From Catajapyx aquilonaris (lineage: Eukaryota): a stretch of 64,000 bases of DNA. Positions 41,939-63,753 of the stretch are shown here, piece after piece; within the stretch, counting starts at the first letter, position 1; each line of letters opens with the position of its first letter. The notes beneath the pieces were generated by a model that saw only the letters and a list, made by a program, of their open reading frames with translations, had not been told where the DNA came from and did not search any database. The stretch is taken from the NCBI GenBank assembly GCA_000934665.2, contig KZ538170.1:1-64000 (forward strand). Reading direction: 5' to 3'. Made by a program: the position numbers and the translations under genes.

Positions 41939-43906
41939 TTAATTGTTTTTCCAATTACACTTGATCGAATACGACATACATTCTGCAAGACTGACAAACA
42001 GAGAAATCAATATTCCAACAGACCAAAGCAGGAAAGCAGCCTTAAGATCTTCCAAAGAATACGCGCCTTCTAGTGACTCGATAATTTCATCTTGCAAATT
42101 AATCTTGCGAATTTCAGGTAACTTTGCAAAGTAATGCACGTAGTCTTCTTCCTGATGCCATTTGGTCAATATGCCGCTGTCAACCAGCCTTTCTGCAGCA
42201 GCTATCACATGTGGAGCGTACACTTCGCCTCGACCAAAACCTATTCCAGAGAAGGTGAAAAAATATTCTTCTGGCTGAGACACTATTTTACTCACCCCAT
42301 TGTTGTTGACAAATGTAAGCATGTCTCTATTAGCATAAAGAGTACTTGCTCCGCAAACTAAATTAGCCGTAAGAACCTTTTCCAAGCATTCATGTAGAGA
42401 GTTGATAAGTTTTGCTCTCCTGTACAAAATGTGATATTTCTGATCATCTATCAAACTCAATGTAGCTTGCAGAAGTGTATATTCCTTGATTGGCAATCCC
42501 ACGTCGTAATCGGAATCTACAAGTTCATGAATACCTTGAGGAATGTATTCTTTCTCTGGGGACGTGATGAAGGCAACAAGCTTCGTTTTGTAAGCACAAC
42601 AGATGATTAAAGCAAATGCCCAAAAAATCGAGACACAAATTTTCAGTGACATGACAGGAGGTAAGCTCCTCGGCTGCTCAATGAGTATGCGAAGGTAAAT
42701 GCTTAGGGAATCAATAAATGTCAAAAAACTGAACATTTCCCGAAAATATCGGGTCAGAATAAACCATGTCGTCACGGCAGAACACAAAGTGCTAAATGCA
42801 ACAGCAGCCCACATGATAGGTGTGAATGGATATATCAGACCTTTCCATGTCCCAAAAGATCTAGGCTTCCGAGTCACTGCTATTCCGTGCCAAAACATTA
42901 TTGGATGCGATAATTCCATTTTATCTATGGCATAATCCGAGTCCAAAACTCCGAAGGACGTGTGAACATTTCCCATCATAATGTCGTCTGCAATTTCTGT
43001 CCAGGTTTCGTTGAGCAATGGCAGGAGATCGTGAAAATACAAGCGTGTGTTAGCGTTCAAGTATTCTTTTATGCCATGCATCGCTAACCCTACCATTGTT
43101 ACAGGCCCTTCACCAAACCTGAAAACCTTTTTTGAAGTCTGTGGCAAAATTTGCCTGCTGCCAATTATTACTTGACGACCGTTAAGGTCTCTGCTGTAAT
43201 CTGGGTACAAATTGTAATTAGCCTTACTATTCCGATGTACTTGACCCAGTCTGACCACACTTGATTCGCCTGCATTGCAGAAGAAGCAGGCAGTGGACAT
43301 GTCCAATGCGTTTTGATCTGGGTCGTACCTGGCCATCAACTTGAACCGAATTCCAGACGCGGTTGTGGACAAGAGTGTTTCTTTTGGGTTGGAGTCAGGT
43401 GTCATCCAGAAGAGAAACCGGTCGTAGAGATTCCTCAGGTTGGCCACTGAGGCCAGGTGAACCATCAGGTTGGGAAGAGTCTCTTGAGACGAGGGGATCA
43501 GGATGTTGAAGGCGCAGTCAGATCCGGACCAGAAGCTTGAACGCAGCTCAGGAGGCATTGTTGTGAAGGACAACAACTCCTTCTGGCTCTTCAGGTTGGG
43601 GTAATTTTGGTATGAGAACGTGAAATCTCTCATGCGAGTGATGAGCAATGAACGATAGTTTCTACTGGCTTCATTGATCGCGGTTACTTTGCCTCGTTTT
43701 GAGTCACTTGCTATGACCAAGGAGCAGGAAGAATACAGTTCGTCTCCATATCTTTGCAAGATATTCGCCATCAACAGTTCTTCCGGATCAGGAAGTACAC
43801 GCACTTGAACTTGAATATCCGCATGAATTAGTGACAGAAATGAAGAAAGCAGAGCGGTGATTGTTGCCATTGTAAAAGGACGCGTATTCAGAGTTAGTTG
43901 AAGCAT
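41939..43906 (-). CDS. G3: divergent ionotropic receptor, intronless, 655 aa (alternative start ATG at 43870)
   Basis: YPFTPIMW; RILIEQP; CCAYKTKLVAFIT; GFGRGEVYAP; YSLEDLKAAFLLW. Confidence 0.9.
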   Translation of the reverse strand: MLQLTLNTRPFTMATITALLSSFLSLIHADIQVQVRVLPDPEELLMANILQRYGDELYSSCSLVIASDSKRGKVTAINEASRNYRSLLITRMRDFTFSYQNYPNLKSQKELLSFTTMPPELRSSFWSGSDCAFNILIPSSQETLPNLMVHLASVANLRNLYDRFLFWMTPDSNPKETLLSTTASGIRFKLMARYDPDQNALDMSTACFFCNAGESSVVRLGQVHRNSKANYNLYPDYSRDLNGRQVIIGSRQILPQTSKKVFRFGEGPVTMVGLAMHGIKEYLNANTRLYFHDLLPLLNETWTEIADDIMMGNVHTSFGVLDSDYAIDKMELSHPIMFWHGIAVTRKPRSFGTWKGLIYPFTPIMWAAVAFSTLCSAVTTWFILTRYFREMFSFLTFIDSLSIYLRILIEQPRSLPPVMSLKICVSIFWAFALIICCAYKTKLVAFITSPEKEYIPQGIHELVDSDYDVGLPIKEYTLLQATLSLIDDQKYHILYRRAKLINSLHECLEKVLTANLVCGASTLYANRDMLTFVNNNGVSKIVSQPEEYFFTFSGIGFGRGEVYAPHVIAAAERLVDSGILTKWHQEEDYVHYFAKLPEIRKINLQDEIIESLEGAYSLEDLKAAFLLWSVGILISLFVSLAECMSYSIKCNWKNN

Positions 43907-44554
43907 TACAGACTGTGTAACATCTGTGCAATAATTTTAATTTATGATGTGAGGTGTGAAGGACGTGATGATCATATAGTAAAAAACAAAAGCTCTTAAT
44001 GGAGTCTTGAAGGCCATCATTTTTATTTCTGTCGTGGCATACACTATTGGCATATTGGCATGTTAACAAGTCCCTTCTAGAAGGTGACAGGGAACATTAT
44101 TGGGACCTTCACCTGGAGAAATAATGCCCCAATGAAATGCTCAGAAGTTTATCCTAGATGTTTGTTGGAATTATTATGAAAAATCTGATATAATACGTAG
44201 TATTGATTTTAAAAAACATCAAAACGAACTGAGTTTTGAGACGCATTCCCTCCATCCAATTACATAATGTATTGTGCATTACGGAGAAACACATGTAAGA
44301 CCAAAATATTCAGGAACGTAAACCATTTTTTATTATGTGCATTTCATTTACTGAAAACTTTTTCTGCGACACCTTGTGATAAACAAAAGTTTCCAGAGTT
44401 CATATTTTTACCTGCGTGTCGTTATGTAATGATATATGATTTGAAACATGGTATTTACTCTAAGGAGACACTACCTTATCAAAATCAGGTGGAGATGATT
44501 TTTTTACCATTATGCTTGATTGAATACAATATACGTAATTATTATCCTATTCTG

Positions 44555-46543
44555 CTAAACTTTTCCCAAACTGTACCTGATCAAGTACAACGTATATTCC
44601 GCAAGACCCACAGAGAGAGATACAACTATTCCAACAGTCCAGAGCATGAAAGCAGCCTTAAGATCTTCTAATGAATAGGCCCCTTCCAGCGATTCGATTA
44701 TTTCATCTCGCATATTACGCTTGCGAATCTCTGGCAACTTTGCAAGGTAATACACGTAGTCTGCTTCTTGCTTCCATTTAGTTAAGAGACCGCAGTCAAA
44801 CAATCTTCTTGCAGCAGCTATCACATGTGGAGCATACACCTCCCCTCGACCAAAACCCATTCCAGAGAAGGCGAAGAAATATTCTTCTGGATGAGACATT
44901 ATTTTGCTCTCGCCATTGTTGCTGACGAAAGTACTCATTCCTCTAATGCCAAAAAGATTACTAACTAAACAAACATAATTAGTCGTAACAACATTTTCCA
45001 AGCATTTATGTACTGAGTTCATGAATGTCGCTTTGTTGAAGATATCGTGATATTTCTGATCATCTATTAAATGCAAAGCAGCACGCAGAAGCATGTACTC
45101 AGTCATTGGCATTCCGACTTTGAAGTCGGAATCGAGAATTTCTTGAAGATCATGAGGAATGTACTCCTTATCAGGCGATGTAATAAAGGCAACAAGCTTG
45201 GTTTTGTACGCACAGATGATGATTGAAGAAAACGCCAAATAAATTGCAATGCAGAATTTTAGCGACACGAGAGACGGCAATTTCATGGGTTGCTCGATGA
45301 GTATGCGAAAGTGAAGGTTCATAGAATGCAAAAAGACCATCAGCAATGAGTCCGCCCTATTTCTGAGATCATATCGGCTCAAAATATACCATGCCGTGAT
45401 ACTGGAAAAGAGAGTAGTTAGTGCAACAGCCCCCCACATGATCGGTGTGAACGGATATATCAGAACCTTCCATGTCCCAACAGATCTTGGGACTCGAGTC
45501 ACGAACATTCCATGGTAAAAAAACATAGGATACGACATTTCCATATGTGCCGTAGAATATTCAGTGACAAGCACTGCGAAGGATATGTGAACATTCCCCA
45601 TCAGAATGTCATCCGCAATTCCTGTCCAGGTTTCGTTCAATTCAAGTTCATGTGACGAAGGCGGGGGATCTTGAAAATATATCTGGGTCGCAGCTTTCAA
45701 ATATTCTTTTATGAAGTGCACCGTTAACACTGCCACTGTTACAGGCCCTTCACCGAATTTGATACGAGTCTTCGAAATTTCTGGCACATACATTCTGCTG
45801 CCAACAATCACTTGGCGACCATGAAGGTCTCTGCTGTAGTCCGGGTACAAATTGTAATTATAACTATTATTCCGATGCACTTGTCCCAGTTTGACCACAC
45901 TTGCTTCACCTGCATTGCAGAAGAAGCATGCAGTGGACATGTCCAATGCATTTCGATCTGGGTCGTACCTGGCCATCAACTTGAACCGAATTCCAGACGC
46001 GGTTGTGGACAAGAGTGTTTCTTCTGGGTTGGAGTCAGGTGTCATCCAGAAGAGAAACCGGTCGTAGAGATTCCTCAGGTTGGCCACTGAGGCCAGGTGA
46101 ACCATCAGGTTGGGAAGAGTCTCTTGAGACGAGGGGATCAGGATGCTAAAGGCGCAGTCAGATCCGGGCCAGAAGCTTGAACGCAGCTCAGGAGGCATTG
46201 TTGTGAAGGAAAACAACTCCTTCTGGCTCTTCAGGTTGGGGTAATTTTGGTATGAAAACGTGAAGTTTTCCATGCGAGTGATTAGCACTGAACGATAGTT
46301 TCTATTGGCTTCACTTATTGCAGTTAATTTGGCAATACCCTCTTGCGTCCCACTTGCTACGACCAAGGAGAAGGACGAAAAGAGTTCGTCTGCATGTCTT
46401 CTCAAGAAATCCGCCATCAATATCACTTCCGGATCATGCAGTACACTCACTTGCACTTGAATGTCCGCGCGAATTAGTGACGAGAATGTAGCAAGCATCA
46501 ACTGAACACTAATTGTTGCCATCGTTAAACGACTTGTACGCAT
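44555..46543 (-). CDS. G4: divergent ionotropic receptor, intronless, 662 aa
   Basis: Same IR architecture: NETWTGIADDIL, YPFTPIMW, RILIEQP, CAYKTKLVAFIT, YSLEDLKAAFMLW. Confidence 0.9.
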   Translation of the reverse strand: MRTSRLTMATISVQLMLATFSSLIRADIQVQVSVLHDPEVILMADFLRRHADELFSSFSLVVASGTQEGIAKLTAISEANRNYRSVLITRMENFTFSYQNYPNLKSQKELFSFTTMPPELRSSFWPGSDCAFSILIPSSQETLPNLMVHLASVANLRNLYDRFLFWMTPDSNPEETLLSTTASGIRFKLMARYDPDRNALDMSTACFFCNAGEASVVKLGQVHRNNSYNYNLYPDYSRDLHGRQVIVGSRMYVPEISKTRIKFGEGPVTVAVLTVHFIKEYLKAATQIYFQDPPPSSHELELNETWTGIADDILMGNVHISFAVLVTEYSTAHMEMSYPMFFYHGMFVTRVPRSVGTWKVLIYPFTPIMWGAVALTTLFSSITAWYILSRYDLRNRADSLLMVFLHSMNLHFRILIEQPMKLPSLVSLKFCIAIYLAFSSIIICAYKTKLVAFITSPDKEYIPHDLQEILDSDFKVGMPMTEYMLLRAALHLIDDQKYHDIFNKATFMNSVHKCLENVVTTNYVCLVSNLFGIRGMSTFVSNNGESKIMSHPEEYFFAFSGMGFGRGEVYAPHVIAAARRLFDCGLLTKWKQEADYVYYLAKLPEIRKRNMRDEIIESLEGAYSLEDLKAAFMLWTVGIVVSLSVGLAEYTLYLIRYSLGKV

Positions 46544-46955
46544 GGGACTTCGCAGAGTGCTGTATTACTGATGGTGGTGCTTTTAAATTTCAGTTTGTAG
46601 GGTGCGGTGTGGAGGATGCGATGGTGGTAGTGCAGAAAAAGACATCCTAATGGAATATTGAAGGCGACAACTTTTATGCCTGCCAACACAATGGAGTAGT
46701 GACATGCTGTCATTGTTATGAAATGGATTGCATGCTCGTGAAGATGGCGGAGAACGTCAAGCATTGAATTTCAAACAAGAGGGTCTCTGTATCATGTACG
46801 AGTACATATATTTCAAAGTTCACAATAGATTATAACCATGAAAATAAATGTCTTTAACTGCCTGTGACACAGTTGCCAGTATGACGGTCAATACTTGCGT
46901 GAAACGTCTCAGGAAACACAAATATTATTCATGAGTTGCAAGAATAAGACTGTAA

Positions 46956-47171
46956 ATTTCGGTATCGACGTGCGAGTTCCTCGTATGCGAGTCCTCGTAA
47001 GCGAGAAATCTTGTACGTCGAGTCGCCTCAGTCTTTGTCGCCTCAGGGCCCCTCTTGTCCCTCGAAAAGGGGATGAAAGTTTAAAATTTTCACATTTTCC
47101 TCTTTCCTCGTATCCGGGCATGCGCAGTTGGCTCCTCGTATGCGAGAAATCTTGTACATGGATACCGGCCT
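46956..47171. mobile_element. PIF/Harbinger-like MITE with TAA target-site duplication
   Basis: Flanked by TAA (46953-46955 and 47172-47174). Right terminus reverse-complemented (AGGCCGGTATCCATGTACAAG) resembles the degenerate left terminus (ATTTCGGTATCGACGTGCGAG). Absent at the paralogous spacer positions ~50700 and ~55865. Confidence 0.55.
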
Positions 47172-47803
47172 TAAGTCGTTGGGATGAAATTAATCTAAAT
47201 ATTTGCTATATAATTTACCTATTTCCCACCTTTACCGTTAGACATTTTCTTCCTTTATAAATTCAGTCATCTATCGTATTGAAAGTAGAGCTTTAAAGGG
47301 TTATTGGAAATCCGAGATGCAAAGCAATCTTTACAAAATACATGCCAGGTGTCCCATCAGAATACGTTGAACCTTTTCAACATAATTATTATGAACTACC
47401 ATATAAAATAAAAAAGGTCTATTCTGTAGAGCAGACATTTGTAAGACGAAGTATGAAGGACCTTGCGTACAGTATTGAAACAATAACTTCAAAATGAACT
47501 GAATAGTGATTAGCATTATTTACTTCATACATTTTTTTTACATATTATGTGAAAATATTCGATAGGTAACTACATCACAGAGAAACGTTCGAAATACAAT
47601 ATATAACGACATATTATCAAGTACAATGTGCATTACATTTTCCTGAAAGATTAATCCAGAAACCATGAGATAGCTATAAAGGTTGCTAAGTATATTTCAT
47701 ATCTGCCAGTGCATATCACTGTGTGATGATGTTCTGTGATGTATTACTGTAAGAAATAGATGCAATGGTACTAACGGTTGTACGTGAAATTTGTCTCACA
47801 TGC

Positions 47804-49746
47804 CTACTTGGTCGGATAAGATATATATTCTGCAAGAAACACTAATATAGATATTATTATTCCACAAGACCAAAGCATGAAAGCAGCCGAAAGATCATCC
47901 AATGAATAGGCACCTTCCAGAGACTCGATCACTACTTCTATCACGTTATCTTTGCGAATTTCAGGCAACTTTGCAAAGTAATGCACGTAGTTTTCTTCAT
48001 ATTGCCATTTGGCCAATAGACCACTATGAATCCATACTTTTGCAGCAGCTATCACATGTGGAGCGTACACCTCCCCTCGACCGAAAGCTATTCCAGAGAA
48101 AATGAATAAATATTCTTCTGGCTGGGTCATTATTTTGCTCTCTCCGTTGTTGTTGACAAATGTACTCATTTCTCTATCAGCAAAAGCACTATTCATCATG
48201 CAAACAAAATTATTCTGCAGTACCTTTTCGAAGCATTCATATTGTGAGTTCATGAGTTTGCTTTCTTGAAAATATCGTGATATTTCTGATCATCTATGAG
48301 AGGCAAAGAAGAACTCAGAAGCATGTATTCCCCCAGAGGCAGTCCCACGTCGAAGTTGGAATCGATTATTTCTTGAAAATCGCTAGGAAGGTACTCCTTA
48401 TCAGGCGATGTGATAAAGGCAACAAGCTTGGTCTTGTAGGCACAGCAGATGATAAAAGCAAAGAAGCAAAAAAATGCAACACAAACTCTCAGCGACGTAA
48501 GAGGTGGCAATTTCATGGGTTGTTCTATGAGTATGCGAAAGTGAATGTTCATAGAATGCAGGAAAATGAGAATACGTGAATTGTGTTGAGAATATCTGCA
48601 CAAAATACAGCCAACGGTGATAGCAGAGAACATAGCACTTATCCTAACAGCAATCCACATGATGGGTGTGAATGGATATATCAGAACTTTCCATGATATC
48701 TCAACAGATCTGGGGACGCGAGTCACTGCTATTCCGTGCCAAAGATTTGTAGGATATGACAGTACCATATGTTCCGTTGAATATTCCGAGACAAGCACTG
48801 CGAAGGATATGTGAACATTTCCCATCAGAATGTCATCTTCAATTCCGGTCCAGGATTCGTTCAAACCAAGTTCATATGACGAAGATAGGGGATCTTGAAG
48901 ATACGTGTCCGCATTAGCGTTCAATACTTGTTTTATGGCGTTCATTTCTAACCCTACCCTTGTTACAGACCCTTCCCCAAACCTGACATTCTTCTTCGCA
49001 TTCTCGGGCACATACATCCTGCTGCCAACAATCACTTTATGACCGTGGAGGTCTCTGCTGTAGTCTGGGTACAAATTGTAATTATTAGCCTTACTATTCC
49101 GATGCACTTGTCCTAGCCTGACCACCTTTGATTCGCCTTGGTTGCAGAAGAAGCAGGCAGTGGACAGGTCCATTGCGTTTCGATCTGGGTCGTACCTGGC
49201 CATCAACTTGAACCGAATTCCAGACGCGGTTGTGGACAAGAGTGTTTCTTCTGGGTCGGAGTCAGGTGTCATCCAGAAGAGGAACCGGTCGTAGAGATTC
49301 CTCAGGTTGGCCACAGAGGCCAGGTGAACCATCAGGTTGGGAAGAGTCTCTTGAGACGAGGGGATCAGGATGTTGAAGGCGCAGTCAGATCCGGGCCAGA
49401 AGCTTGAACGCAGCTCAGGAGGCATTGTTGTGAAGGAAAACAACTCCTTCTGGCTCTTCAAGTTGGGGTAATTTTGGTGTGAGAACGTGAAGTTTTCCAT
49501 GCGAGTGATGAGGACAGAACGATAGTTGCCATTAGCTCTCTTGATTTGAGTAAACTTGGCAATGCCTCCCTTTGTGTCACTTGCTACCACCATGGAGCAG
49601 GAAGCATAAAGTCACTGTGCGTGTAGTTGAAAGAAACTTTCCATCAATCTCTCTTCATAATCTTGGAAAACACTTACTCGACAGTTGGCAAATGCGGACA
49701 TGATTGCAGCAATGATAAGAATCAGTTGAAGAGCGATTACTGCCAT
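47804..49746 (-). pseudogene. G5: full-length divergent IR copy with premature TGA and a 1-nt frameshift
   Basis: ATG at 49744-49746 aligns with G6-G8 starts; in-frame TGA at 49612-49614 (codon 45, K in G6/G7); one base missing at ~48254-48258 splits ORFs 48250-49593 and 47804-48253. Confidence 0.85.
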
Positions 49747-50374
49747 CACAAACGTACGTTCTCAACCTTAGTTGAATGCTTGCTGACTGCTGTGTTCCGC
49801 AGTACTCTTTAAGGGTCAATTTCTGTGGTGGGGTTGAAGGGTTGACATTTGGGTAAAAGGAATAAGCTATTAATTCTGGACAACTACCTCTTACGAAAGG
49901 CGTTCACGTTCACCTGTGTGACATTTTAACATGTTACGTAACTGCTCAGATAGTGCTGTTATACAGAAGATGAACAATTACGCTTTCTCGTCTGCTTTTC
50001 GAGATATTTATTAAAAAGTTCAACTGTTATAGTTTTACCAGAATATCTACAGCTAACAGTACTGACAGGATCAATTGAACAGCTGCTCATGCCATTGAAA
50101 GGCGACATACGTATTTGAATCTTAATTGAAGCATTGGATAGTACTACGTTGCACGTTTGACACTGCACTGCTGTCCATGTCAAATGGGGGGCTGTTTAAT
50201 AATAAACTGCTGAAGAAATCTATCAACTAATGGACCCTACATAAAAATATGTCATGGTTGACCTTGCTTCTACACAATGAGTTATTGACTTTTTGGGTGA
50301 CGCGCATTAAGAGGTCGATTTGATATGAGTGTGAGTGCTCGTCGTTTACGTTGGAGTTTGGAGTTGAAATACCT

Positions 50375-50580
50375 TCACTCACAGGGTGAACTTAACTCAG
50401 GAAGCATTGTTGTGGGTGAAAATAACTCCTTCTTGCTCTTCAGGTTGGGGAAATTTCGGTATGAGAACGAGATATTTTCGATCCGACTTATGAGCACTGA
50501 ACGATAGTTGCCACTAGCTCTCTTGATTCGAGTAAACTTGGCAGTACCTCTCATTGCGTCACTTGCTACGACAAAGAAGA
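50375..50580 (-). pseudogene. Short IR N-terminal relic
   Basis: VVASDAMRGTAKFTRIKRASGNYRSVLISRIENISFSYRNFPNLKSKKELFSPTTMLPELSS aligns with the N-terminal region of G4-G8; no start and no remainder. Confidence 0.85.
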
Positions 50581-51320
50581 AAGAATAAGCACGACAATAA
50601 ATTACTTTACTCGCTCTGACACAGGTGCCACTCTGATGGTCAATAATTGCTTTGAACTTCAAGAAACACAAACATTAATAATGAGTTGCAAGAATATTAA
50701 GGTAAGTCGGGGGAAGACGCCCCAATCTTTCTCATTCTCCATGTGACTGAGATGTGATGATGTCTCCTGGTGCTAAGAGAGCCCCTATACTATCCCCCAC
50801 CTATAACCATGAGATGGAGTCAGCAGGATCAATTAAACAGGTCCAATAATTATCGAAACATTGTGAAAACTCTCATCATTTGAGCAGGTCATTATATTAC
50901 GATATAATGAACCACCACATAAAAAAGAAGAAGTTTATAATGTAGAGATTGTAGACGTTTGTAAGACAAAGTATGAAAGACCTTGTGTACACTGTACAGT
51001 ATTGAAACAATAACTACAAAATGAACTGAATAGTGATAAGCATTATTTATTTCCTACACTTACATATTGTGCGAAAATATTCGACAGATACTCATACAGT
51101 ACATCACAGAGAGACGTTCGAGATACAACATATTATCAAGTACAAGGTGCATTACATTTTCCTGATACATTAACCCAGACACCGTGAGATAGCCATAAAA
51201 GTTGCTAAGTATTTATATCCACCTGTGCATGTCACTGTGTGATGATATTCTGTGAGACATGGGAAACCCTGTAATAAATAGATGCTATGGTACTAACGTG
51301 TGCACGTGAGTCTCACGTGC

Positions 51321-53264
51321 CTAATTTTTCCAATACGATATACATTCAGCAAGAACCACTAAATTAGACATCATCATTCCACACGACCAGAGCATGAAAG
51401 CAGCCAAAAGATCTTCCAATGAATAGGCACCTGTCAGAGACTCGATCACTTCTTCTCGCAGGCTATCTTCTCGAATTTCAGGCAACTTTGCAAAGTAATG
51501 CACGTAGTCTTCTTCATATTGCCATTTGGAAAATATACCACTATCAAACAATGCCTTTACAGCAGATATTACATGTGGAGCATACACCTCCCCTCGACCA
51601 AAACCTATTCCAGAGAAAGTGAAGAAATATTCTTCTGGCAGGGTCATTATTTTGCTCTCTCCGTTGTTGTCGACAAATGTACTCATTTCTCTATTAGCAA
51701 AAGCACTAGTTGCCGTGCAGACAAAATTACTCTGCAGTACCTTTTCGACGCATTCGTATCGTGAGTTCATGTACATTGCTTTCTTGAAGAGAGAGTGATA
51801 TTTCTTATCCTCTATTAAAGGCAAATAATAATTCAGAATCATGTACTCCAACGGTGGCAGACCCACTTCAAAGTCGGAATCGATTATTTCCTGAATATAG
51901 TGAGGAATATATTCCTTATCAGGTGATGTAATAAAGGCAATAAGCTTGGTCTTGTAGGCACAGCTGATGATAGAAGCAAAGAACCAAAAAAATGCAACAC
52001 AAACTTTAAGCGATGTAAGAGGTGGCAATTTCATGGGTTGTTCTATGAGTATGCGAAAGTGAATGTTCAGAGAATGCAATAACACCATAATGCGTGAATT
52101 GGTTTGATAATATCTGCACAAAATGCAACATACGGTAATAGCAGAGAACAGGGTACTTAGCGTAACAGCAACCCACATGATAAGTGTGAATGGATATATC
52201 AGAACTTTCCAGGAAATCCCAACAGACTTGGGGACGCGAGTCATTCCTATTACGCGCCAAAGATTTGTAGGATATGACAGTACCAAATGTTCCGTTGAAT
52301 ATTCCGAGGCAATCACTTCCAAGGATACGTGAACATTTCCCACCAGAATGTCATCTTCAATTACTCCTGTCCAGGATTCGTTCAATTCAAGTTTATATGA
52401 CAAATATGGGAGATCTTGAAGGTACGTGTCCGCATTAGCGTTCAATACTTGTTTTATGGCGTTCATTTCTAACCCTAACCTCGATACAGGCCCTTCCCCA
52501 AACCTGACATTCTTTTTCGTATTCTCCGGCACATACACCCTGGTTCCAACAATCACTTTAAGGCCATAAAGGTCTCTGCTGTAGTCCGGGTACAAATTGT
52601 AATTAAACTTACAATTCCAATGCACTTGTCCGAGTTTGACCACCCTTGATTCGCCTTGGTTGCAGAAGAAGCAGGCAGTGGAGAGGTCCATTGCATTTCG
52701 ATCTGGGTCGTACTTGGCCATCAACTTGAACCGGATTCCAGACGCGGTTGTGGACATGAGCGTTTCTTCTGGGTTGGAGTCAGGTGTCATCCAGAAGAGA
52801 AACCGGTCGTAGAGATTCCTCAGGTTGGCCACTGAGGCCAGGTGAACCGTCAGGTTGGGAAGAGTCTCTTGAGACGAGGGGATCAGGATGTTGAAGGCGC
52901 AGTCAGATCCGGGCCAGAAGCTTGAACGGAGCTCAGGAGGCATTGTTGTGAAGGAAAACAACTCCTTCTGGCTCTTCAGGTTGGGGTAATTTTGGTATGA
53001 GAACGAGAAATTTTCCATGAGAGTGATGAGGACAGAACGATAGTTGCCATTAGCTTTCTTGATCTCAGTGAACTTGGCAACACCTCTCTTTGTGTCACTT
53101 GCTACCACCACGGAGCAGGAAGCATAAAGTTTTCCTCCTTGTAGTTGAAAGAAATTCTCCATCAATCTCTCTTCATAATCTTGGAGAACACTTACTCGAC
53201 TCTTGGCAAATGCGGACATGATTGCACCAATGATAAGAATCAGTTGAAAAGCGATTGCTGCCAT
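51321..53264 (-). CDS. G6: divergent ionotropic receptor, intronless, 647 aa from ATG
   Basis: ORF track start is a GTG; first ATG at 53262-53264. IR motifs RILIEQP, SCAYKTKLIAFIT, YSLEDLLAAFMLW. Confidence 0.9.
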   Translation of the reverse strand: MAAIAFQLILIIGAIMSAFAKSRVSVLQDYEERLMENFFQLQGGKLYASCSVVVASDTKRGVAKFTEIKKANGNYRSVLITLMENFSFSYQNYPNLKSQKELFSFTTMPPELRSSFWPGSDCAFNILIPSSQETLPNLTVHLASVANLRNLYDRFLFWMTPDSNPEETLMSTTASGIRFKLMAKYDPDRNAMDLSTACFFCNQGESRVVKLGQVHWNCKFNYNLYPDYSRDLYGLKVIVGTRVYVPENTKKNVRFGEGPVSRLGLEMNAIKQVLNANADTYLQDLPYLSYKLELNESWTGVIEDDILVGNVHVSLEVIASEYSTEHLVLSYPTNLWRVIGMTRVPKSVGISWKVLIYPFTLIMWVAVTLSTLFSAITVCCILCRYYQTNSRIMVLLHSLNIHFRILIEQPMKLPPLTSLKVCVAFFWFFASIISCAYKTKLIAFITSPDKEYIPHYIQEIIDSDFEVGLPPLEYMILNYYLPLIEDKKYHSLFKKAMYMNSRYECVEKVLQSNFVCTATSAFANREMSTFVDNNGESKIMTLPEEYFFTFSGIGFGRGEVYAPHVISAVKALFDSGIFSKWQYEEDYVHYFAKLPEIREDSLREEVIESLTGAYSLEDLLAAFMLWSCGMMMSNLVVLAECISYWKN

Positions 53265-53890
53265 CACAAAAGTACGTTCTCAACCGTAGTTGAATGCTTG
53301 TCGACTGCTGCGATGCACAGTACTCGGTATTTAATGGTCAGTTTTTGTGGTGGGGCAGGAGGGTTGACATTTGGGTAAAAGGAATAATCTATTAATCCTG
53401 GACAACTACCTCTTACGAAAGGCGTTCATGTCGACTTGTTTTTAAAAGCAATATTGATATTTTCACCGTGTTACGTAACTGTTCAGATAGTGATGTTATA
53501 CAAAAGATGAACAATTGCGCTTTCTCGTTTGCCATTCGAGATATTTATTAAAAAGTTCAACAGTCATATCCATGCACAGTTAACAGTAGGCTATTGACAA
53601 GATCATTTGAACAGCTGCTCATGCCATTGAAAATCGACATATTTAAATCTTAATCGAAGCAGTGTATATAATCCTACGTTTCACGTTTGACATATCACTG
53701 CAGTCCAAGTCAAATGGGGGGCTGTTTAAGTATTATGCTGAGGAAATCTATCAACTAATGGACCCTACATATGGTTGACCTTCTACATAGTGAGTTATTG
53801 ACTTTTTGGGTGACGCGCATTAAGAAGTAGATCTGATATGAGTGTGAGTCGGTGTGAGTGCTCGTCGTTTACTTTGGAGTTGCAATACCT

Positions 53891-54280
53891 TCACTCCCAT
53901 GGTGAACTTAACTCAGGAAGCATTGTTGTGGATGAAAATAACTCCTTCTTGCTCTTCAGGTTGGGGTAATTTCGATATGAGAACGAGATATTTTTGTTCC
54001 GACTTATGAGCACTGAACGTTAGTTGCCACTAGCTTTCTTGATTCGAGTAAACTTGGCAATACCTCCCATTGTTCCACTTGCTACGACAAAGGAGAGAGA
54101 GGAAAGCAGTTCGTCTCCATGTCTTTATAAGAAATCCGCCATCAATGTCACTCCTGGGTCATGCAGTGCACTTACTTGAACTTGAATGCCCTTGTGAATG
54201 CCCGAAAGAATTGGTGACAATAATGTATGAAGCCTCAAATGAACTGTGATTGTTGCCCTTGTCAAACGACTAGTACGCAT
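53891..54280 (-). pseudogene. 5'-only IR pseudogene of G4 type
   Basis: Begins MRTSRLT as in G4 (ATG 54278-54280), continues IQVQVSALHDPGVTLMADFL*RHGDEL; stops at 54125-54127 and 54020-54022; homology ends at TTMLPELSSPW. Confidence 0.88.
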
Positions 54281-54440
54281 AGCAAGTATGGACAACGCGA
54301 CTCAGAGTGGTGGTGGTTCCAGATTTTAGTTTGTGGGGTGAGGTGTGGAGGATGTGATGGTCGTAGTGCATGAAAAATATGCAAATGGACCATTGAAAGC
54401 GAAAGATTTTATAGCTTCTAATGCATAGAGTGCTGACATG

Positions 54441-55637
54441 AGGGGTGTGGAGGATAAACATGATAACTGACAAAGGAGTAATCTTTCAGGAGAGCGAATT
54501 TAAGTTAGCACTCTTGTCACAAATCAACATTATTACCTCAACTTGTAACACTGGGTTTTATTATATTGCCTGACTGTCTGTCTTGTCGTCCATAACTTTT
54601 GGAACACTCATTCCTGTAATTAATGGATATACAGGGTGTAACAAAAGATTCCGCCTCGATGACTCATGGATGATGTAATCGTAGATTTCAAAATCCATAT
54701 CTCACCAACGGCTCGTGTGAATAGCCATGTGCCTCATATATCATTCGAACCGCATTGAAAGGCCGCTCCCGCCAGATCCACTGCGCAGCTCCCATAGACT
54801 AGGCATAACAGCTACAACTATTTCTGTGGGGCTACTCGGGAATCATAAAAAAACGTTGCGGTGAAGTTTACGGGTTCAAAGAACGATTATATGAAAAATA
54901 TTCCTTAGAAGCCAATCTAATTAATTCCTAAATTCCCATAATTGTGCTAAGCTTCACACAATCTCTATCACTGCGCAAAGATCCTTTTCCAATATAGCCA
55001 CCTTGTAGACAGCGGAAGATGGCTTCATACGATAAAGTACGACAAAGCACTTGAGCGTGTGATTTTTGTGGTGAATTCTGCAGGGTTTGCTTGTGAATAT
55101 GCCGAAAACCGCATTCCTTTAGGATTGATAGATTCTTTGCAAAAAATAAAATAAAGTGAGTGTTCTTAAATCACGGACACGTCGGGCACTTGCAAGGAAT
55201 CTTCATGACAGACCACACATGCATTGCACACCTCTCATGATGACAAAAGCAGAGTGAGTGAGGATATGGACGGGAAACTGAGTCACACAGGGGGTTATGG
55301 GAGTATACAATATCAACATAAAAGATGACAGGTAACTTTAAAAAACTGAGAATTTCCCCTGTATAATATTGACTGGACCAGAAACCTTTGTTACACCCTG
55401 TATTAAAGGGAAGAATGCGAAGCGTATAAAAATAGGGGCAGTTATCGTGTTTTTCCGTTTGAGGAATTGCCTGAAAATATGGCATGTTGGTTATCATCCA
55501 GCCCATGTTGCCGTCTGGTGCATGATATGTGAACTTTGAGAATACCAAAATGTTTGTCTGGTCTTTTACATAGTTTCTAGGTGTTTAGTTCAAAAATGAC
55601 AAAAATGTCAGATATCATGTTTTCCCACCACACCCCT
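54441..55637. mobile_element. Non-autonomous DNA transposon, 32-bp imperfect TIRs, GACATG target-site duplication
   Basis: Left AGGGGTGTGGAGGATAAACATGATAACTGACA versus right reverse complement AGGGGTGTGGTGGGAAAACATGATATCTGACA (28/32 match); GACATG at 54435-54440 and 55638-55643; single GACATG empty site in the paralogous spacer at ~46701. Confidence 0.8.
54632..55400. mobile_element. Tc1/mariner-type non-autonomous element nested in the previous element
   Basis: TA-CAGGGTGTAACAAA ... TTTGTTACACCCTG-TA: 14-bp perfect TIR with TA duplication at 54630-54631 and 55401-55402. Confidence 0.8.
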
Positions 55638-56452
55638 GACATGTTGTCATTGTTATGAAATCGATTACCGGCTCTTAAAGATGCAGGAGGACGTCAAGCA
55701 TTGCCTTTGAGACAAGAGGGCCTTTACATAATATACGAGTACATGTCTCAATGTTCACAATAGAATAAGCACGACAATAAAATAATGACTTTTACTCGCT
55801 GTGACACACGTGCCACTCTGATGGTCAAGAAACACAAACATTATTCATGAATGGCAAGAATATTAAGGTAAGCAGGGGGTCATTCTTTGTGTGACTGAGA
55901 TGTGATGAATCTCTCCCGATGCTATGAGCGTCCATATACTTTCCCCGACCTATATCCTATTAAACAGGTCCGATTATCGAAAGATTGTGCGAAAACAGCC
56001 ATTATTTGAGCATGTCATTATATTACGATATTATGAACCACCACATAAAAAGGAAGAGGTTTATAATGTAGAGATTGTAGACGTATGTAAGACAAAGTAT
56101 GAAAGACCTTGTGTACAGTATTGAAACAATTAATTGCAATATGAACGGAATAGTAATAAGCATTATTTATTTTCTACACTAATCTTACATATTGTGCGAA
56201 AATATTCTACAGGTACATCACAGAGAGACGTTCGAGATAGAATATAATTTTAACGACATATTACCAAGTACAAGGTGCATTACGTTTTCCTGATACATTA
56301 ACCCAGACACCATGAGATAGCCATAAAAGTTGCTAAGTATTTATACTATCCACCTGTGCATGTCACTGTGTGATGATATTCTGTGAGACATGGTAAACAC
56401 TGTAATAAAATAGATGCTATGGTACTAACATGTGCACGTGAGTCTCACGCGC

Positions 56453-58399
56453 CTAATTTCTCCAATACGACATACATTCTGCAATAACCACTAAATTAGA
56501 CATCATCATTCCACAAGACCAAAGCATGAAACCAGCCAAAAGATCTTCCAATGAATAGGCACCTTCTAGAGACTCGATCACTTCTTCTCTCAGGTTATCT
56601 TTTCGAATTTCAGGCAACTTTGAAAAGTAATACACGTAGTTTTCTTCATATTGCCATTTGGAAAATATACCACTATCAAACAATGCCTTTACAGCAGATA
56701 TTACATGTGGAGCATACACCTCCCCTCGACCAAAACCTATTCCAGAGAAAGTGAAGAAATGTTCTTCTGGCAGGGTCATTATTTTGTTCTCTCCGTTGTT
56801 GTTGACAAATGTACTCATTTCTCTATTAGCAAAAGCACTAGTTGCCGTGCAAACAAAATTACTCTGCAGTACCTTTTCGACGCATTCATATCGTGAGTTC
56901 GTGTATATTGCTTTCTTGAAGATATCGTGATATTTCCTATCCTCTATTAAAGGCAAATAATAATTCAGAAGCATGTACTCCAACGGTGGCAGACCCACTT
57001 CAAAGTCGGAATCGATTATTTCCTGAATATCTTGAGGAATATATTCCTTATCAGGTGATGTAATAAAGGCAATAAGCTTGGTCTTGTAGGCACAGCTGAT
57101 GATAGAAGCAAAGAACCAAAAAAATGCAACACAAACTTCAAGCGATGTAAGAGGTGGCAATTTCATGGGTTGTTCTATGAGTATGCGAAAGTGAATGTTC
57201 AGAGAATGCAATAACACCATAATGCGTGAATTGGTTTGATAATATCTGCACAAAATGCAACATACGGTAATAGCAGAGAACAGGGTACTTAGCATAACAG
57301 CAACCCACATGATAAGTGTGAATGGATATATCAGAACTTTCCAGGAAATCCCAACAGACTTGGGGACGCGAGTCATTCCTATTACGCGCCAAAGATTTGT
57401 AGGATATGACAGTACCAAATGTTCCGTTGAATATTCCGAGGCAAGCACTTCCAAGGATACGTCAACCTTTCCCATAAGAATGTCATCTTCAATTACTCCT
57501 GTCCAGGATTCGTTCAAACTAAGTTCATATGACAAAGACGGGGGATCCTGAAGATACGTGTCCGCATTAGCGTTCAATACTTGTTTTATGGCGTTCATTT
57601 CTAACCCCAACGTCGATACAGGCCCTTCCCCAAACCTGACATTCTTCTTCGTATTCTCCGGCACAGACGCCCTGGTTCCAACAATCACTTTATGGCCATA
57701 AAGGTCTCTGCTGTAGTCTGGGTACAAATTGTAATTATACTGACTGTTCCGATGCACTTGTCCGAGTTTGACCACACTTGCTTCACCTGCATTGCAGAAG
57801 AAGCAGGCAGTGGACATGTCCAATGCGTTTTTATCTGGATCGTACTTGGCCATCAACTTGAACCGGATTCCAGACGCGGTTGTGGACAAGAGTGTTTCTT
57901 CGGGGTTGGAGTCAGGTGTCATCCAGAAGAGGAACCGGTCGTAGAGATTCCTCAGGTTGGCCACTGAGGCCAGGTGAACCATCAGGTTGGGAAGAGTCTC
58001 TTGAGACGAGGGGATCAGGATGTTGAAGGCGCAGTCAGATCCGGGCCAGAAGCTTGAACGGAGCTCAGGAGGCATTGTTGTGAAGGAAAACAACTCCTTC
58101 TGGCTCTTCAGGTTGGAGTAATTTTGGTATGAGAACGAGAACTTTTCCATGCGAGTGATGAGGACAGAACGGTAGTTGCCATTAGATTTCTTGATCTCAG
58201 TGAACTTGGCAACACCTCTCTTTGTGTCACTCGCTACCACCATGGAGCAGGAAGCATAAAGTTTTCCTCCTTGTAATTGAAAGAAATTCTCCATCAATCT
58301 CTCTTCATAATCTTGGAGAACACTTACTTGAACGTCACTGTTGGCAAATGCTGACATGATTGCACCAATAAGAATGAGTTGGACAGCGATTGCTGCCAT
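56453..58399 (-). CDS. G7: divergent ionotropic receptor, intronless, 648 aa from ATG; recent paralogue of G6
   Basis: First ATG at 58397-58399; near-identical to G6 over most of its length and downstream flank; IR motifs intact. Confidence 0.9.
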   Translation of the reverse strand: MAAIAVQLILIGAIMSAFANSDVQVSVLQDYEERLMENFFQLQGGKLYASCSMVVASDTKRGVAKFTEIKKSNGNYRSVLITRMEKFSFSYQNYSNLKSQKELFSFTTMPPELRSSFWPGSDCAFNILIPSSQETLPNLMVHLASVANLRNLYDRFLFWMTPDSNPEETLLSTTASGIRFKLMAKYDPDKNALDMSTACFFCNAGEASVVKLGQVHRNSQYNYNLYPDYSRDLYGHKVIVGTRASVPENTKKNVRFGEGPVSTLGLEMNAIKQVLNANADTYLQDPPSLSYELSLNESWTGVIEDDILMGKVDVSLEVLASEYSTEHLVLSYPTNLWRVIGMTRVPKSVGISWKVLIYPFTLIMWVAVMLSTLFSAITVCCILCRYYQTNSRIMVLLHSLNIHFRILIEQPMKLPPLTSLEVCVAFFWFFASIISCAYKTKLIAFITSPDKEYIPQDIQEIIDSDFEVGLPPLEYMLLNYYLPLIEDRKYHDIFKKAIYTNSRYECVEKVLQSNFVCTATSAFANREMSTFVNNNGENKIMTLPEEHFFTFSGIGFGRGEVYAPHVISAVKALFDSGIFSKWQYEENYVYYFSKLPEIRKDNLREEVIESLEGAYSLEDLLAGFMLWSCGMMMSNLVVIAECMSYWRN

Positions 58400-59168
58400 C
58401 ACAAAATTACGTTCTCAACCTTAGTTGAATGCTTGTCGACTGCTGTGTAGCGCAGTACTCGGCATTCAAAGGACAATTCTTGTGGTGGGGGTGGGAGGGT
58501 AGACATTTGGGATAAAAGATTCACCTTTTTAATCGACTACTACCGTTTACAAAAGGTGTTCGTGTAGCCTGTGCCGTTAAAAGCAGTATTGATATTTTCA
58601 CCGTGTTACATAACTGTTCAGATAGTGATGTTTGTAACAAAACTCGGTGCCATTCTTCTGTGCCCATTGTTATTCGAGTAATTAATTCGTAGAAGGTGAA
58701 TATCCACAGATAGCAGTATTGACAGAATAAATTGAACAATTGCTCATGGAATATTGAAAAGAGGCATAATTATTTAATCTTAATCGAAGCAGTGGAGAGG
58801 CATACATTGCATGGTAAGCCTACACATTGCACTGCAGTCCAAGTCAAATAGGGGGCTGGTTAATAACAATTGCTGAATAAATCTATTAAATAATGGAACA
58901 AATACATTTGAAAATTAATTAAATAAATAAATAATATTAATACTTAATCAATCTAAATAACGTACATAATACGTTATGGTTGACCTTTTGCCTTTACATA
59001 ATGAGTTATTGAATTTTTGGGTGGTATTAAGAAGCGATTTGATATGAGGGTGCATGTCCATCGTTTACGTTGGAACTTCATTACATTCACTCTGCTTATA
59101 AAGACACTACATGACTACAGGGACATTTGTTCAGAATATCCCGGCATGAATTAGTTTCTTTTCGCATT

Positions 59169-61109
59169 TTATTTTCTAATGCGGGTAATATTCTCTGCCA
59201 CACCTACTAATATAGAAAAAATCATCCCGACAATCCAAAGAATGAAAGCCGCCTTAAGATCCTCCAATGAATACGCGCCTTTCAGAGACTCGATTACTTC
59301 TTCTCTCAGAATATCTTTGCGAATGTCAGGTAACTTTCTAAAGTAATACACGTAGTCTTCTTCTTGTTGCCATTTCGGCAAAAGACCACTATCGAACAAT
59401 ACTTTTGCAGTAGCTATCACATGTGGAGAATACACCTCCCCTCGACCAAAACCTATTCCGGAGAAGGAGAAGAAATATTCTTCTGGCTGAGCCACTATTT
59501 TGCTCTCCCCATTATTTTTCACAAAGGTACTAATTTCTCTTTCCGTAAAAGAAGAAGTTACGCAAACAAAATTACTCTGAAGTACCTTTTCGAAGCATTC
59601 ATATCGTGAGTTCATGGCTATTGCTTTCTTGAAGAGAGAGTGATATTTCCGATCCTCTATTGAAGGCAAAGAAGTACACAGATGCATGAACTCCGTCAGT
59701 GGCATTCCCACTTCGAAGTCAGAATTGATTATTTCTTGAAAATCGGAAGGAATATATTCCTTATCAGGAGATGTGATGAAGGCAACAAGCTTGGTCTTAT
59801 AGGCACAGCTTATGATAGAAGTAAAGAACCAAAAAATTGCAATACAAAATCTTAGTGACAGAAGAGGTGGCAATTTCATGGGTTGTTCTATGAGTATGCG
59901 AAAGTGAATGTTCAGAGAATGGAGGATGAACATGAGAATACATGAATTGTTTTGATAATATCTGCACAAAATACAGCCAACGGTGATAGCAGAAAACATA
60001 GTACTTAGCATAACAGCAATCCACATGATGGGTGTGAATGGATAAATTATAACTTTCCATGATATCCCAACAGATCTGGGGACGCGATTCACTGCTAGTC
60101 CATGCCAAAGATTCCAAGGATATGAGAGTGCCATATGTTCCGTTGAATATTCCGAGGCAAGCACTGCGAAGGATATGTGAACATTTCCCATCAGAATGTC
60201 ATTTTCAATTCCTGTCCAGGATTCGTTCAAACCAACTTCATATGACAAAGATAGAGGATCTTGAAGATACGTGTCCGCATTAGCGTTCAATAATTGTCTC
60301 ACGGCGTTCATTGCTAACCCTACCCTTGTTACTGGTCCTTCTCCAAACCGGACATTCGTCTTCGCATTCTCCGGCACATACATCCTGCTGCCAACAATCA
60401 CTTTATGACCGTGGAGGTCTCTGCTGTAGTCCGGGTACAAATTGTAATTAAACTTACAATTCCAATGCACTCTTCCTAGATTGACCACCTTTGATTCGCC
60501 TTGGTTGCAGAAGAAGCAGGCAGTGGACAGGTCCATTGCATTTCGATCTGGGTCGTACCTGGCCATCAACTTGAACCGAATTCCAGACGCGGTTGTGGAC
60601 AAGAGTGTTTCTTCTGGGTTGGAGTCAGGTGTCATCCAGAAAAGAAACCGGTCGTAGAGATTCCTCAGGTTGGCCACTGAGGCCAGGTGGACCATAAGGT
60701 TGGGAAGAGTCTCTTGAGACGAGGGGATCAGGATGTTGAAGGCGCAGTCAGATCCGGGCCAGAAGCTTGAACGCAGCTCAGGAGGCATTGTTGTGAAGGA
60801 AAACAAATCCTTCTGGCTCTTCAGGTTGGGGTAATTTTGGTATGAGAACGTGAAGTTTTCCATGCGAGTGATGAGGACAGAACGATAGTTGCCATTAGCT
60901 CTCTTGATTTGAGTAAACTTGGCAATGCCTCTCTTTGTGTCACTTGCTACCACCATGGAGCAGGAAGAGAGTAGTTTTTCTGAGTTTTTTTGGATGAAAT
61001 TTTCCATCAATATCTCTTCATAATCCTGGAGAACACTTAGAACGTGAGTGTTGGCAAATGCTGACATGATTCCACCAATAAGAATCAATTGAAAAGCGAT
61101 TGTTTCCAT
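59169..61109 (-). CDS. G8: divergent ionotropic receptor, intronless, 646 aa from ATG
   Basis: First ATG at 61107-61109; RILIEQP, SCAYKTKLVAFIT, YSLEDLKAAFILW. Confidence 0.9.
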   Translation of the reverse strand: METIAFQLILIGGIMSAFANTHVLSVLQDYEEILMENFIQKNSEKLLSSCSMVVASDTKRGIAKFTQIKRANGNYRSVLITRMENFTFSYQNYPNLKSQKDLFSFTTMPPELRSSFWPGSDCAFNILIPSSQETLPNLMVHLASVANLRNLYDRFLFWMTPDSNPEETLLSTTASGIRFKLMARYDPDRNAMDLSTACFFCNQGESKVVNLGRVHWNCKFNYNLYPDYSRDLHGHKVIVGSRMYVPENAKTNVRFGEGPVTRVGLAMNAVRQLLNANADTYLQDPLSLSYEVGLNESWTGIENDILMGNVHISFAVLASEYSTEHMALSYPWNLWHGLAVNRVPRSVGISWKVIIYPFTPIMWIAVMLSTMFSAITVGCILCRYYQNNSCILMFILHSLNIHFRILIEQPMKLPPLLSLRFCIAIFWFFTSIISCAYKTKLVAFITSPDKEYIPSDFQEIINSDFEVGMPLTEFMHLCTSLPSIEDRKYHSLFKKAIAMNSRYECFEKVLQSNFVCVTSSFTEREISTFVKNNGESKIVAQPEEYFFSFSGIGFGRGEVYSPHVIATAKVLFDSGLLPKWQQEEDYVYYFRKLPDIRKDILREEVIESLKGAYSLEDLKAAFILWIVGMIFSILVGVAENITRIRK

Positions 61110-61819: not shown

Positions 61820-61950
61820 TTTATTTGATAAAAGCAGGAATATGCTCTGCCAGACCTTCTAGTACTATAGGAAATAATAATCATGCCGCCTGTCCAAAGA
61901 ATGAAAGCAGCCTTAAGATCAGTGAATACGCGCCTTCCAGAGACTCGATT
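61820..61950 (-). pseudogene. IR 3'-end relic (M4 region only)
   Basis: DLKAAFILWTGGMII plus a frameshifted ESLEGAYS-like segment; similar to the 3' ends of G8 and G9. Confidence 0.8.
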
Positions 61951-62615
61951 AATCATGAATTGCATGAAGAATACTGCAACACGTTTAGATGAAAGATTAA
62001 TGCAATTATTTTTTGCTATGTAATTTCTCAATTATAGGCACTTTTACTATTACGCTTATTCAGGCTTTTTCTTCCTTAATAAATTCAGTCACCTATTGAA
62101 AGTGGAGATTTTTTGTTGTGAATTTGAAATCTGAGATGAAAATCAAACTTGGTCAAATAAAACATGCCGTGTGTCGCAGAATTAGTTGAACAGTTTAAAC
62201 ATATTATGAACTACCACATAAAATAAAAGGAAAGAAGTTCAACCTTGACATTTGTAGGAGAAAGTATGAAACAATTTGTGTGCAGTATTGAAACAATAAC
62301 TACAACGTGGAATGAGTATTGATGCTGTTTGCATTTATTTCTCACAATATTACATTGTTTGCTAAAATATTCGACGTATTGATCAGTGATCACAGAGAGA
62401 CGTTAGAATGCAGTTCATATTTCTGAATCTTTAGCTCAGAAACCATGGGATGGAGAACATAAGTCTCAAAATATTTATATTCACTTCTGCATGTCACTGT
62501 GTTATATTATTCAGTGATTCATGGTACTCTGTAAGTGTAAGAATTAGGCACTATGGTACTTTCTCAGTAACAAGTGGACTGTACTTGAATTTATTTCTCA
62601 AGAATACTAATAGGG

Positions 62616-63113
62616 CTACTTGATCGGATACGACATACATTCTGCAAGACCCACAAACAAAGAGATTGTTATTCCCACAGACCAAAGCATAAAGGCGGTC
62701 TTAAGATCCTCCAATGAATACGCGCCTTCCAGAGACTCGATTATTTCTTCTCTCAAATTATTTTTTTCGGATTTCAGACAACATCGCAATGTAAAACACG
62801 TAGTCTTCTTCTTGTTGCCATTTGTCCAATAGACCACTATCAGCAAATACTTGTGCAGTTGCTTATCACATGGGGTAGTGTACGTACCCTTCACCTCGAC
62901 CAAAACCTATTCCAGAGAAAGTGAAGAAATATTATTTCGGCTGAATCATCATTTTGCTCTCTCCATTGTTGTTGACATAGGTACTCATCAGGCAAATACA
63001 TTCTGGTCCCAACAATCACCAGGTGACCATGAAGGTCTCTGCTGTAGTCTTGGTACAAATATTGTAATTAGACTCACTATTCCGATGCACTTGCCCGAGA
63101 CTGACCACACCTG
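62616..63113 (-). pseudogene. Heavily deleted IR pseudogene
   Basis: Retains the 3' end (LREEIIESLEGAYSLEDLKTAFMLW) with indels, joined at ~62990 to a short pre-S1 piece (YNLY/DYSRDLHG-like), which joins 5'-flank sequence at ~63113. Confidence 0.88.
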
Positions 63114-63753
63114 ATAGGTCGATTGTTGTGTTGCGCAGTATACTTGATATTAAAATTTAATTTTTATGCGGGAGGTGGGAGGCTTGACATTTGTGTAAAA
63201 AGTAATCTATTAATGGTCTCCCTTTTACAAAAGGCGTTCATGTTCACCTGTGGCTTTTAAAGGAGTATTGAATGTATAGTATTACATAAGTGTTCAAATA
63301 GTGCTATTATACAAAACGCGCAAAATTGTGCTTTCTCGATTATTCTTCGAGAAATATTAAATATTTCAACAGTCTTACTAAAACCTGAATATCCACAGCT
63401 AGCAGTATTGACATGATCCATTGAATAGCTATTCATGCCATTGAAAAGCTAGCGACATATTCAATCATTATTGAATCAAGGAAGAGGATTACATATAGCA
63501 CGGTACACATTGCACTGCAGTCCAAGTAAAATAGAGAGGAATCTATTAACTAATGAACACTGTGCAGAATACGTCATGGTTGACCTTTGCCTCTATATGA
63601 GTTATTGACTTTATAACGACGTTCATTCACACTCACTAGATGTGAATGGGAATTCCCGTCGTTTACTTTCGAGTTGCAATACATTCACTCTACTTAAAAA
63701 GACGCTAGTACAAGTAAGGTATATTTGCTCCGAATATGAATGCAGGAATCAGT

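Follow-up and report, generated by a model that had tools for sequence, protein, structure and literature searches.

Why should six neighbouring genes that have diverged over most of their length have kept one short segment almost identical, including its synonymous sites? This question is raised by a stretch of 64,000 nucleotides from Catajapyx aquilonaris (GenBank assembly GCA_000934665.2, contig KZ538170.1, positions 1 to 64,000 of the forward strand), hereafter referred to as the window. Between 36.5 and 61.1 kb, it carries eight intronless genes of approximately 635-665 codons each, all on the minus strand, which profile matches and a structural model assign to the ionotropic receptor (IR)/glutamate receptor superfamily, with a putative chemosensory role. 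Six of them, designated G3 to G8, share the near-identical segment, which we refer to as the block. Judging from the comparison of the copies, the block most probably results from recurrent GC-biased interlocus (ectopic) gene conversion among these six tandem IR-like genes, confined to a segment that is constrained at the protein level.

The block was defined as columns 99-214 of the codon alignment, corresponding to 345 nt. It lies at 43274-43618 in G3 (41942..43870, 643 aa), 45914-46258 in G4 (44558..46522, 655 aa; residues 89-203), 52659-53003 in G6 (51324..53264, 647 aa), 57791-58135 in G7 (56456..58399, 648 aa), and 60504-60848 in G8 (59172..61109, 646 aa), all of which are intact. It was also retained, at 49141-49485, in G5 (47807..49746), which three-frame translation revealed to be a pseudogene: a stop interrupts its frame near codon 46 (about 49609-49611), and 1 nt is deleted near 48255. 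The two remaining genes, G1 (36512..38503, 664 aa) and G2 (39257..41158, 634 aa), are likewise intact, intronless open reading frames (ORFs) of the IR type, and as distant paralogues they served as outgroup. An earlier, sequence-only reading of this DNA had described a near-identical segment in all six genes, with limits that differ from ours by 2-7 nt. Its hand count of 6 differences in 300 nt between G3 (43321-43620) and G4 (45961-46260) was reproduced exactly, as was the higher GC content of the block that it had reported (31/60 at 45961-46020 vs 20/60 at 45001-45060). A further count, 9 differences in 60 nt of the M4 region, had come without coordinates; outside the block, 60-nt windows of G3 and G4 contain 5-24 differences.

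Using blastn, the block of G4 was found to be 95.9-97.4% identical to the five other copies over 344-345 nt, compared to 71% for G1 and 68% for G2, while the identity of whole genes is 79-81%. Pairwise identity, averaged in 90-column windows, reached 0.95-0.98 in the block, 0.68-0.88 in other coding sequence, and 0.42-0.66 outside the genes. Only 32 of the 345 block sites are variable, compared to 681 of 1554 outside (Fisher p 2e-38), and the same holds for third codon positions alone (18/115 vs 295/518, p 2e-16). The extent of the block was evaluated for each of the 15 pairs by two-breakpoint likelihood fits. For the nine pairs that include G3 or G4, the low-divergence segment started at columns 91-100 and ended at columns 199-245, with a divergence of 2.3-5.1% inside and 24-29% outside.

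The strongest contrast is found at synonymous sites. Synonymous divergence (dS, NG86 method) was 0.054-0.151 in the block with a mean of 0.095, whereas the means were 0.57 upstream and 0.45 downstream; equal dS inside and outside the block, which the sequence-only reading had named as a result that would refute it, was thus not observed. For the eight old pairs, i.e., G3 or G4 compared with G5-G8, dS dropped from 0.48-1.05 outside to 0.05-0.14 in the block. In contrast, the youngest pair, G6-G7, exhibited a higher dS in the block (0.098) than downstream of it (0.059). Since the old pairs are far less diverged in the block than outside, and the youngest pair is more diverged there, block divergence does not scale with the age of the paralogues; correspondingly, the ratio of block to outside dS spanned 0.09 to 1.57 (Spearman -0.42). 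Relative to G1 and G2, silent sites were saturated in the block as elsewhere (proportion of synonymous differences, pS, 0.61-0.79 vs 0.68-0.94).

These differences are not those of a segment that merely accumulates substitutions at a lower rate. In IQ-TREE, keeping branch lengths proportional (speed of the block 0.31 vs 1.15) was rejected in comparison to unlinked branch lengths (twice the log-likelihood difference 78.1, 10 degrees of freedom, p 1.2e-12). The length of the ingroup tree was 0.12 for the block and 0.77 for the rest (ratio 0.16), while the branch to G2 was nearly as long in the block as in the rest (0.87 vs 0.95, ratio 0.91). Hence, the block is not simply slower-evolving, and its genealogy is no scaled copy of that of its flanks.

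The tree of the block itself is star-shaped, its terminal branches measuring 0.009-0.025, and the clade of G6 and G7, which received 100/100 support in both downstream segments, was not recovered in it. Among the 32 variable block sites, 23 are private to a single copy; three group G6 with G7, and another three, located at the block's 3' end, separate G3, G4, and G7 from G5, G6, and G8. At this end, G7 carries the states of G3 and G4 instead of those of its sister G6, up to about column 222 (approximately 8 codons past the block), and just beyond it, at about columns 227-232, G6 equals G8. As far as these mosaic sites indicate, several overlapping events would fit better than a single event. 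It should also be noted that a far longer stretch is affected in the pair of G5 and G8: over columns 59-437 (about 48501-49602 in G5, and the corresponding part of G8), comprising the N-terminal two-thirds, these two genes differ by 5.8% vs 20% in the rest, which represents an exchange or chimeric duplication that greatly exceeds the block in length.

Base composition sets the block apart as well. In 300-nt windows, the GC content was 0.50-0.54 at each block, whereas the genes otherwise have about 0.36-0.45. This increase is restricted to third codon positions, where the GC content (GC3) of G3-G8 was 0.65-0.70 in the block and 0.41-0.45 in the remainder of the same genes; codon positions 1 and 2 are unchanged (0.41-0.44 in the block vs 0.37-0.45). 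In the same columns, GC3 was only 0.50 in G1 and 0.47 in G2. Such a restriction of the GC rise to third positions is what GC-biased repair of conversion heteroduplexes would be expected to produce. The support for conversion thus comes from the collapse of synonymous divergence, the rejection of a proportional slowdown, the GC rise limited to third positions, and the mosaic sites. We also counted the homogenised block of the pseudogene G5, which is homogenised to the same degree as the blocks of the intact genes, in favor of conversion.

Two additional observations concern the composition of this region. G1 shows a moderate rise of GC3 (0.60-0.67 in 30-codon windows) at columns 135-165 (about 37950-38100) although it is not homogenised with G3-G8, and it may have conversion partners outside the window. 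Furthermore, ORFs of 61-120 aa run antisense across the block on the plus strand, which we judged to be a by-product of the conserved, GC3-rich sense frame.

The position of the block within the encoded proteins was examined next to their identity. A scan of G1, G2, and G4 (3 of the 8 genes) with the Pfam profile Lig_chan (PF00060, cut-off 30.8 bits) yielded 34.5 bits for G1 and 32.7 bits for G2, both exceeding the cut-off, while G4 scored below it (21.6 bits). An AlphaFold2 model of G4, based on an alignment of 46 sequences, reached a mean predicted local distance difference test score (pLDDT) of 84.1. Residues 234-597 of this model were superimposed on ligand-binding domains of GluA2 with Z 21 and a root-mean-square deviation (rmsd) of 2.8-3.0 Å over 231-238 residues, and Foldseek matched the model to full-length GluK2, GluA, and GluD chains with E-values of 3e-21 and weaker. 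G4 is accordingly modeled, and hence predicted, as a receptor with a two-lobed S1S2 ligand-binding domain split by channel helices. A HMMER profile built from seven proteins of the window retrieved 2848 relatives at E <=0.001. When 38 full-length matches were aligned, they were only 15-20% identical to G4, and of the eight top matches that were looked up, the four with an organism name originate from springtails (Orchesella dallaii and Allacma fusca). A word-indexed protein search with G4 yielded no hit at E 1e-5 among 8000 scored candidates of 360-1147 aa.

In G4, the block forms the second half of a domain of approximately 200 residues, which ends about 30 residues before the ligand-binding domain (starting at residue 234). 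The sequence-only reading had considered homogenisation in this place unexpected, with the N-terminal region being usually the least conserved part of IRs. This does not hold here: nonsynonymous divergence (dN) from G1 and G2 is lowest of the whole gene in the block, with 0.28-0.30 compared to 0.53-1.2 elsewhere, and the block can also be recognised in P0030, a protein of 162 aa from an unrelated source. Likewise, the amino-acid difference from G1 was 0.36-0.64 for alignment windows starting at columns 0-75, 0.15-0.33 at columns 90-180, and 0.45-0.68 at columns 195-285. As dN in the block is low across the family while its silent sites are saturated, the segment has been under strong protein constraint with no lasting synonymous constraint.

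It is worth mentioning that the first approximately 30 residues of the block (G4 residues 92-120, about 46163-46249) were modeled with a pLDDT of only about 50-54 but show conservation in both G1 and the unrelated protein P0030; given this combination, they may represent a flexible interaction motif. The N-terminal domain folded alone reached a pLDDT of 56.8, which is below use for a fold search. The alignments of the model to full-length GluA2 start at model residues 27-31 and GluA2 residues 99-113, with an rmsd of 7.8-22 Å.

Conversion among the six genes could have led to this arrangement as follows. During repair of DNA breaks, one copy would serve as template for another, and about 330-460 nt would be overwritten. 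Such conversion would last only where the copies still pair by similarity and where overwriting is harmless. The region in which it has persisted lies directly ahead of the ligand-binding domain and is that part of the N-terminal domain with the strongest protein constraint, and the block would be the only segment in which the old paralogues have stayed similar enough for heteroduplex formation and in which overwriting does no harm. The flanks, i.e., the variable N-terminus and the ligand-binding lobes, would be too diverged or kept different by selection, so that tracts end there. A repair bias toward G and C would have raised the GC content at the silent sites of the block. In this manner, conversion would sustain itself within the block and die out in the flanks. 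The repair mechanism, the cause of the confinement of the tracts, and the question of whether conversion is still ongoing are those parts of the scheme that we infer. The sequence-only reading had proposed a localised gene-conversion hotspot. Conversion is supported by the evidence given above, but a hotspot is not: as the tract limits follow the profile of protein constraint, a tract limited by similarity and selection agrees with them no less than a local initiation hotspot would, and the latter, although conceivable, is not needed to explain the data.

Besides the eight genes, the window contains shorter remains of the family, which were detected by blastn and some of which bear on the history of the array. 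Two relics on the minus strand, F1 (50387..50584) and F2 (53903..54257), are truncated pieces of the 5' part of a gene that contain only the first 81-84 nt of the block, in a form that is not homogenised. Over 81 nt, F1 and F2 are 85% and 86% identical to the block of G4. In comparison to the six genes, they agree at 69-71 of 84 positions, while five gene pairs compared over this part agree at 81-83 of 84. The block parts of the two relics are identical to each other at 80 of 84 positions, and the relics are 15-18% diverged there. As they are both dead and short, this divergence does not separate conversion from selection. F1 and F2 are located approximately 980 nt upstream of G5 and G6, respectively, and this equal distance implies that the duplicated unit consisted of a gene together with a relic. 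The 5' part of F2 resembles the type of G3 and G4. Moreover, a 60-nt remnant of the family was found at 61892-61951, followed by a relic with an internal deletion at 62617-63113, in which the sequence corresponding to nt 620-743 of G4 is joined directly to that of nt 1585-1949. At 63786-63996, the 3' end of another family copy leaves the window. Apart from the family, a long imperfect tandem repeat with a period of 9-15 nt, which reads as a poly-Tyr/Cys ORF, occupies 460-927.

Several results weigh against conversion or do not bear it out, and they have to be considered together with the alternatives. Within the block, with its 32 variable sites, approximately unbiased (AU) tests rejected neither the grouping of G6 with G7 (p 0.17) nor that of G3 with G4 (p 0.086). 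Thus, of the separate trees for block and remainder that the sequence-only reading had suggested, the star-like block tree without the G6-G7 clade stands, while a topological conflict is not significant. A GENECONV-style permutation of the longest runs at polymorphic sites gave no clear signal for the block (p 0.03-0.63 for the five pairs with their longest run in the block); however, this test is uninformative here, because it is conditioned on polymorphic sites and therefore blind to a block that is homogenised in all copies. The private changes in the block lack a bias toward G and C, with 12 strong-to-weak (S>W) and 8 weak-to-strong (W>S) changes, although these are small numbers. Furthermore, the 5' limit of the low-divergence segment is common, within 10 codons, to all nine pairs with G3 or G4, which is also predicted for a functional element with a fixed edge, and the RNA of the block folds slightly better than shuffled sequences (z -1.99; 2 of 100 shuffles folded equally well), while two control stretches from G4 gave z-values of 0.39 and -1.12. 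The last two points, together with the fact that dN and dS are both low in the block, speak for a nucleotide-level constraint, in which selection fixes the DNA including its silent sites because the exon harbors a regulatory element, is targeted by a small RNA, or encodes a structured RNA. The sequence-only reading had offered this as the alternative to conversion, but our results disfavor it and we regard it as unlikely. An element of this kind is difficult to reconcile with silent sites that are saturated relative to G1 and G2, with the rejection of a proportional slowdown (p 1e-12), or with the youngest pair, G6-G7, being more different in the block than downstream; nor would it be expected to enrich GC at third positions only or to be kept in the pseudogene G5. 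In addition, an Rfam scan of 36000-64000 yielded no match at E-values up to 0.1, and compensatory changes were found in none of the 91 predicted base pairs, although the variable sites are too few to assess covariation. What remains of this explanation is a variant in which the element arose only in the ancestor of G3-G8. Related to it is the idea that an identical block is of use in its own right, with conversion as the means of its upkeep, to which we assign a small but real chance. The common 5' edge, the mildly stable fold, and the conserved but low-confidence 30-residue start leave some room for it. In a DNA- or RNA-level form, a candidate would be a shared element dating from the G3-G8 ancestor, such as a small-RNA target or an exonic site for receptor choice; in a protein-level form, a candidate would be a module that all copies have in common and at which a partner subunit docks, with selection favoring those conversions that restore the standard sequence.

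The similarity of the copies could also reflect how they were duplicated or how they were assembled. If unequal crossing-over or chimeric duplication were responsible, the block would be what recent recombinant duplications have left behind and not the outcome of repeated short conversions. The long stretch of low divergence shared by G5 and G8, the relics at equal distances from G5 and G6, and the deleted and truncated copies at 62617-63996 speak for such an origin. However, the block is internal, and in G3 and G4 both of its flanks are diverged, so that two exchanges per copy would be needed, which is conversion in effect. Moreover, the same internal tract is seen in all nine pairs with G3 or G4, and the rise of GC3 is limited to the block, which makes this origin distinctly unlikely. 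An artefact of assembly or polishing, in which reads of different copies were mixed within the block and the consensus erased the copy-specific variants, is conceivable in principle, since the block, a near-repeat, exceeds short reads in length and Logan unitigs break at or inside it. These unitigs were derived from four short-read DNA runs of one sample, are available as contigs only, and possibly represent the assembly's own data. Nevertheless, variants were not erased, as the large share of private sites among the variable block sites demonstrates, and the flanks are unique, with unitigs crossing from flank into block without a mismatch (e.g., 46153-46989). Unitig depth was approximately 126-211 for stretches shared inside the block vs approximately 25-45 for single-copy flanks, and this roughly five-fold depth is as expected for truly near-identical copies. 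As enrichment of GC3 and in-frame conservation are not products of polishing either, an artefact is very unlikely. Taken together with the synonymous and compositional data, recurrent conversion is the reading that we favor.

The unitigs also revealed stretches of high depth between the genes, with approximately 670-1230 at 46566-47176 and 250-570 at 54509-55730, compared to approximately 25-45 for the genes. These are probably interspersed repeats or pieces of mobile elements located between the receptor genes.

Conversion restricted to a part of the coding sequence has precedents in other gene families. For the variable exons of clustered protocadherins, Noonan et al. in 2004 (Genome Res 14:354) reportedly found region-restricted gene conversion, with the converted parts having a raised GC3. 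The likeness to the present array lies in the tandem arrangement of single-exon, receptor-type genes, in which conversion homogenises only some of the coding sequence and the remainder keeps its diversity; the two cases differ in gene family, in animal group, and in the domain concerned. More generally, duplicated genes under both conversion and selection have been described to show high divergence in some regions and very low divergence in others, in section 3.2 of a review that also cites the protocadherin clusters (PMC3924837). The same review covers the human red and green opsins, neighbouring duplicates between which frequent conversion maintains similarity, save where functional differences are preserved by selection, which results in alternating divergence comparable to that observed here (PMC3924837). 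In the opsins as portrayed there, most of the gene is homogenised, with a small divergent peak and two copies involved, whereas in the IR-like genes homogenisation is limited to a small block, divergence prevails over most of the gene, and six copies are involved.

With respect to base composition, KRTAP genes, a family under concerted evolution, have been reported to increase in GC and GC3 as the divergence of paralogues falls, for which the authors invoke biased gene conversion (PMC2528016). There, the effect is seen between subfamilies and for whole genes, whereas it appears here as a sharp step within the gene, at the third positions of a single 345-nt tract. Among chemosensory families of Drosophila, including divergent IRs, GENECONV indicated probable conversion in 8 of 14 ortholog groups, and for two IR groups the tree of the genes may have been influenced by conversion, as stated in the main-text passages of that study (PMC4122928); the same passages describe no block shared by many paralogues, no position within the protein, and no GC3 signature. 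A parallel in genomic architecture is found in Campodea augens, for which the main text of the genome report describes how intronless divergent IRs have expanded in wingless hexapods, with numerous pseudogenes and fragments (PMC6938034). Intronless IR arrays accompanied by pseudogenes and fragments are what we observed here as well, and 'gene conversion' as a term appears 0 times in that main text (PMC6938034). Searches of the literature on chemoreceptor conversion and on springtail IRs, the supplements of the cited papers aside, did not yield a description of the block.

The block most probably represents a clean and well-delimited but ordinary case of a known process, and it leaves current understanding unchanged. 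Its practical consequences concern the analysis of the receptor family: trees, duplication dates, and dN/dS scans would be misled if the block were included, as the old paralogues appear in it as young as the youngest pair, and GC-biased conversion can mimic selection. For the biology of the array, it provides a natural experiment on where conversion persists between diverging tandem genes, with the ligand-binding lobes escaping from it and diversifying. Furthermore, the block marks the conserved domain that precedes the ligand-binding domain as a functionally important, invariant part of these receptors, which may serve as an assembly or trafficking module.

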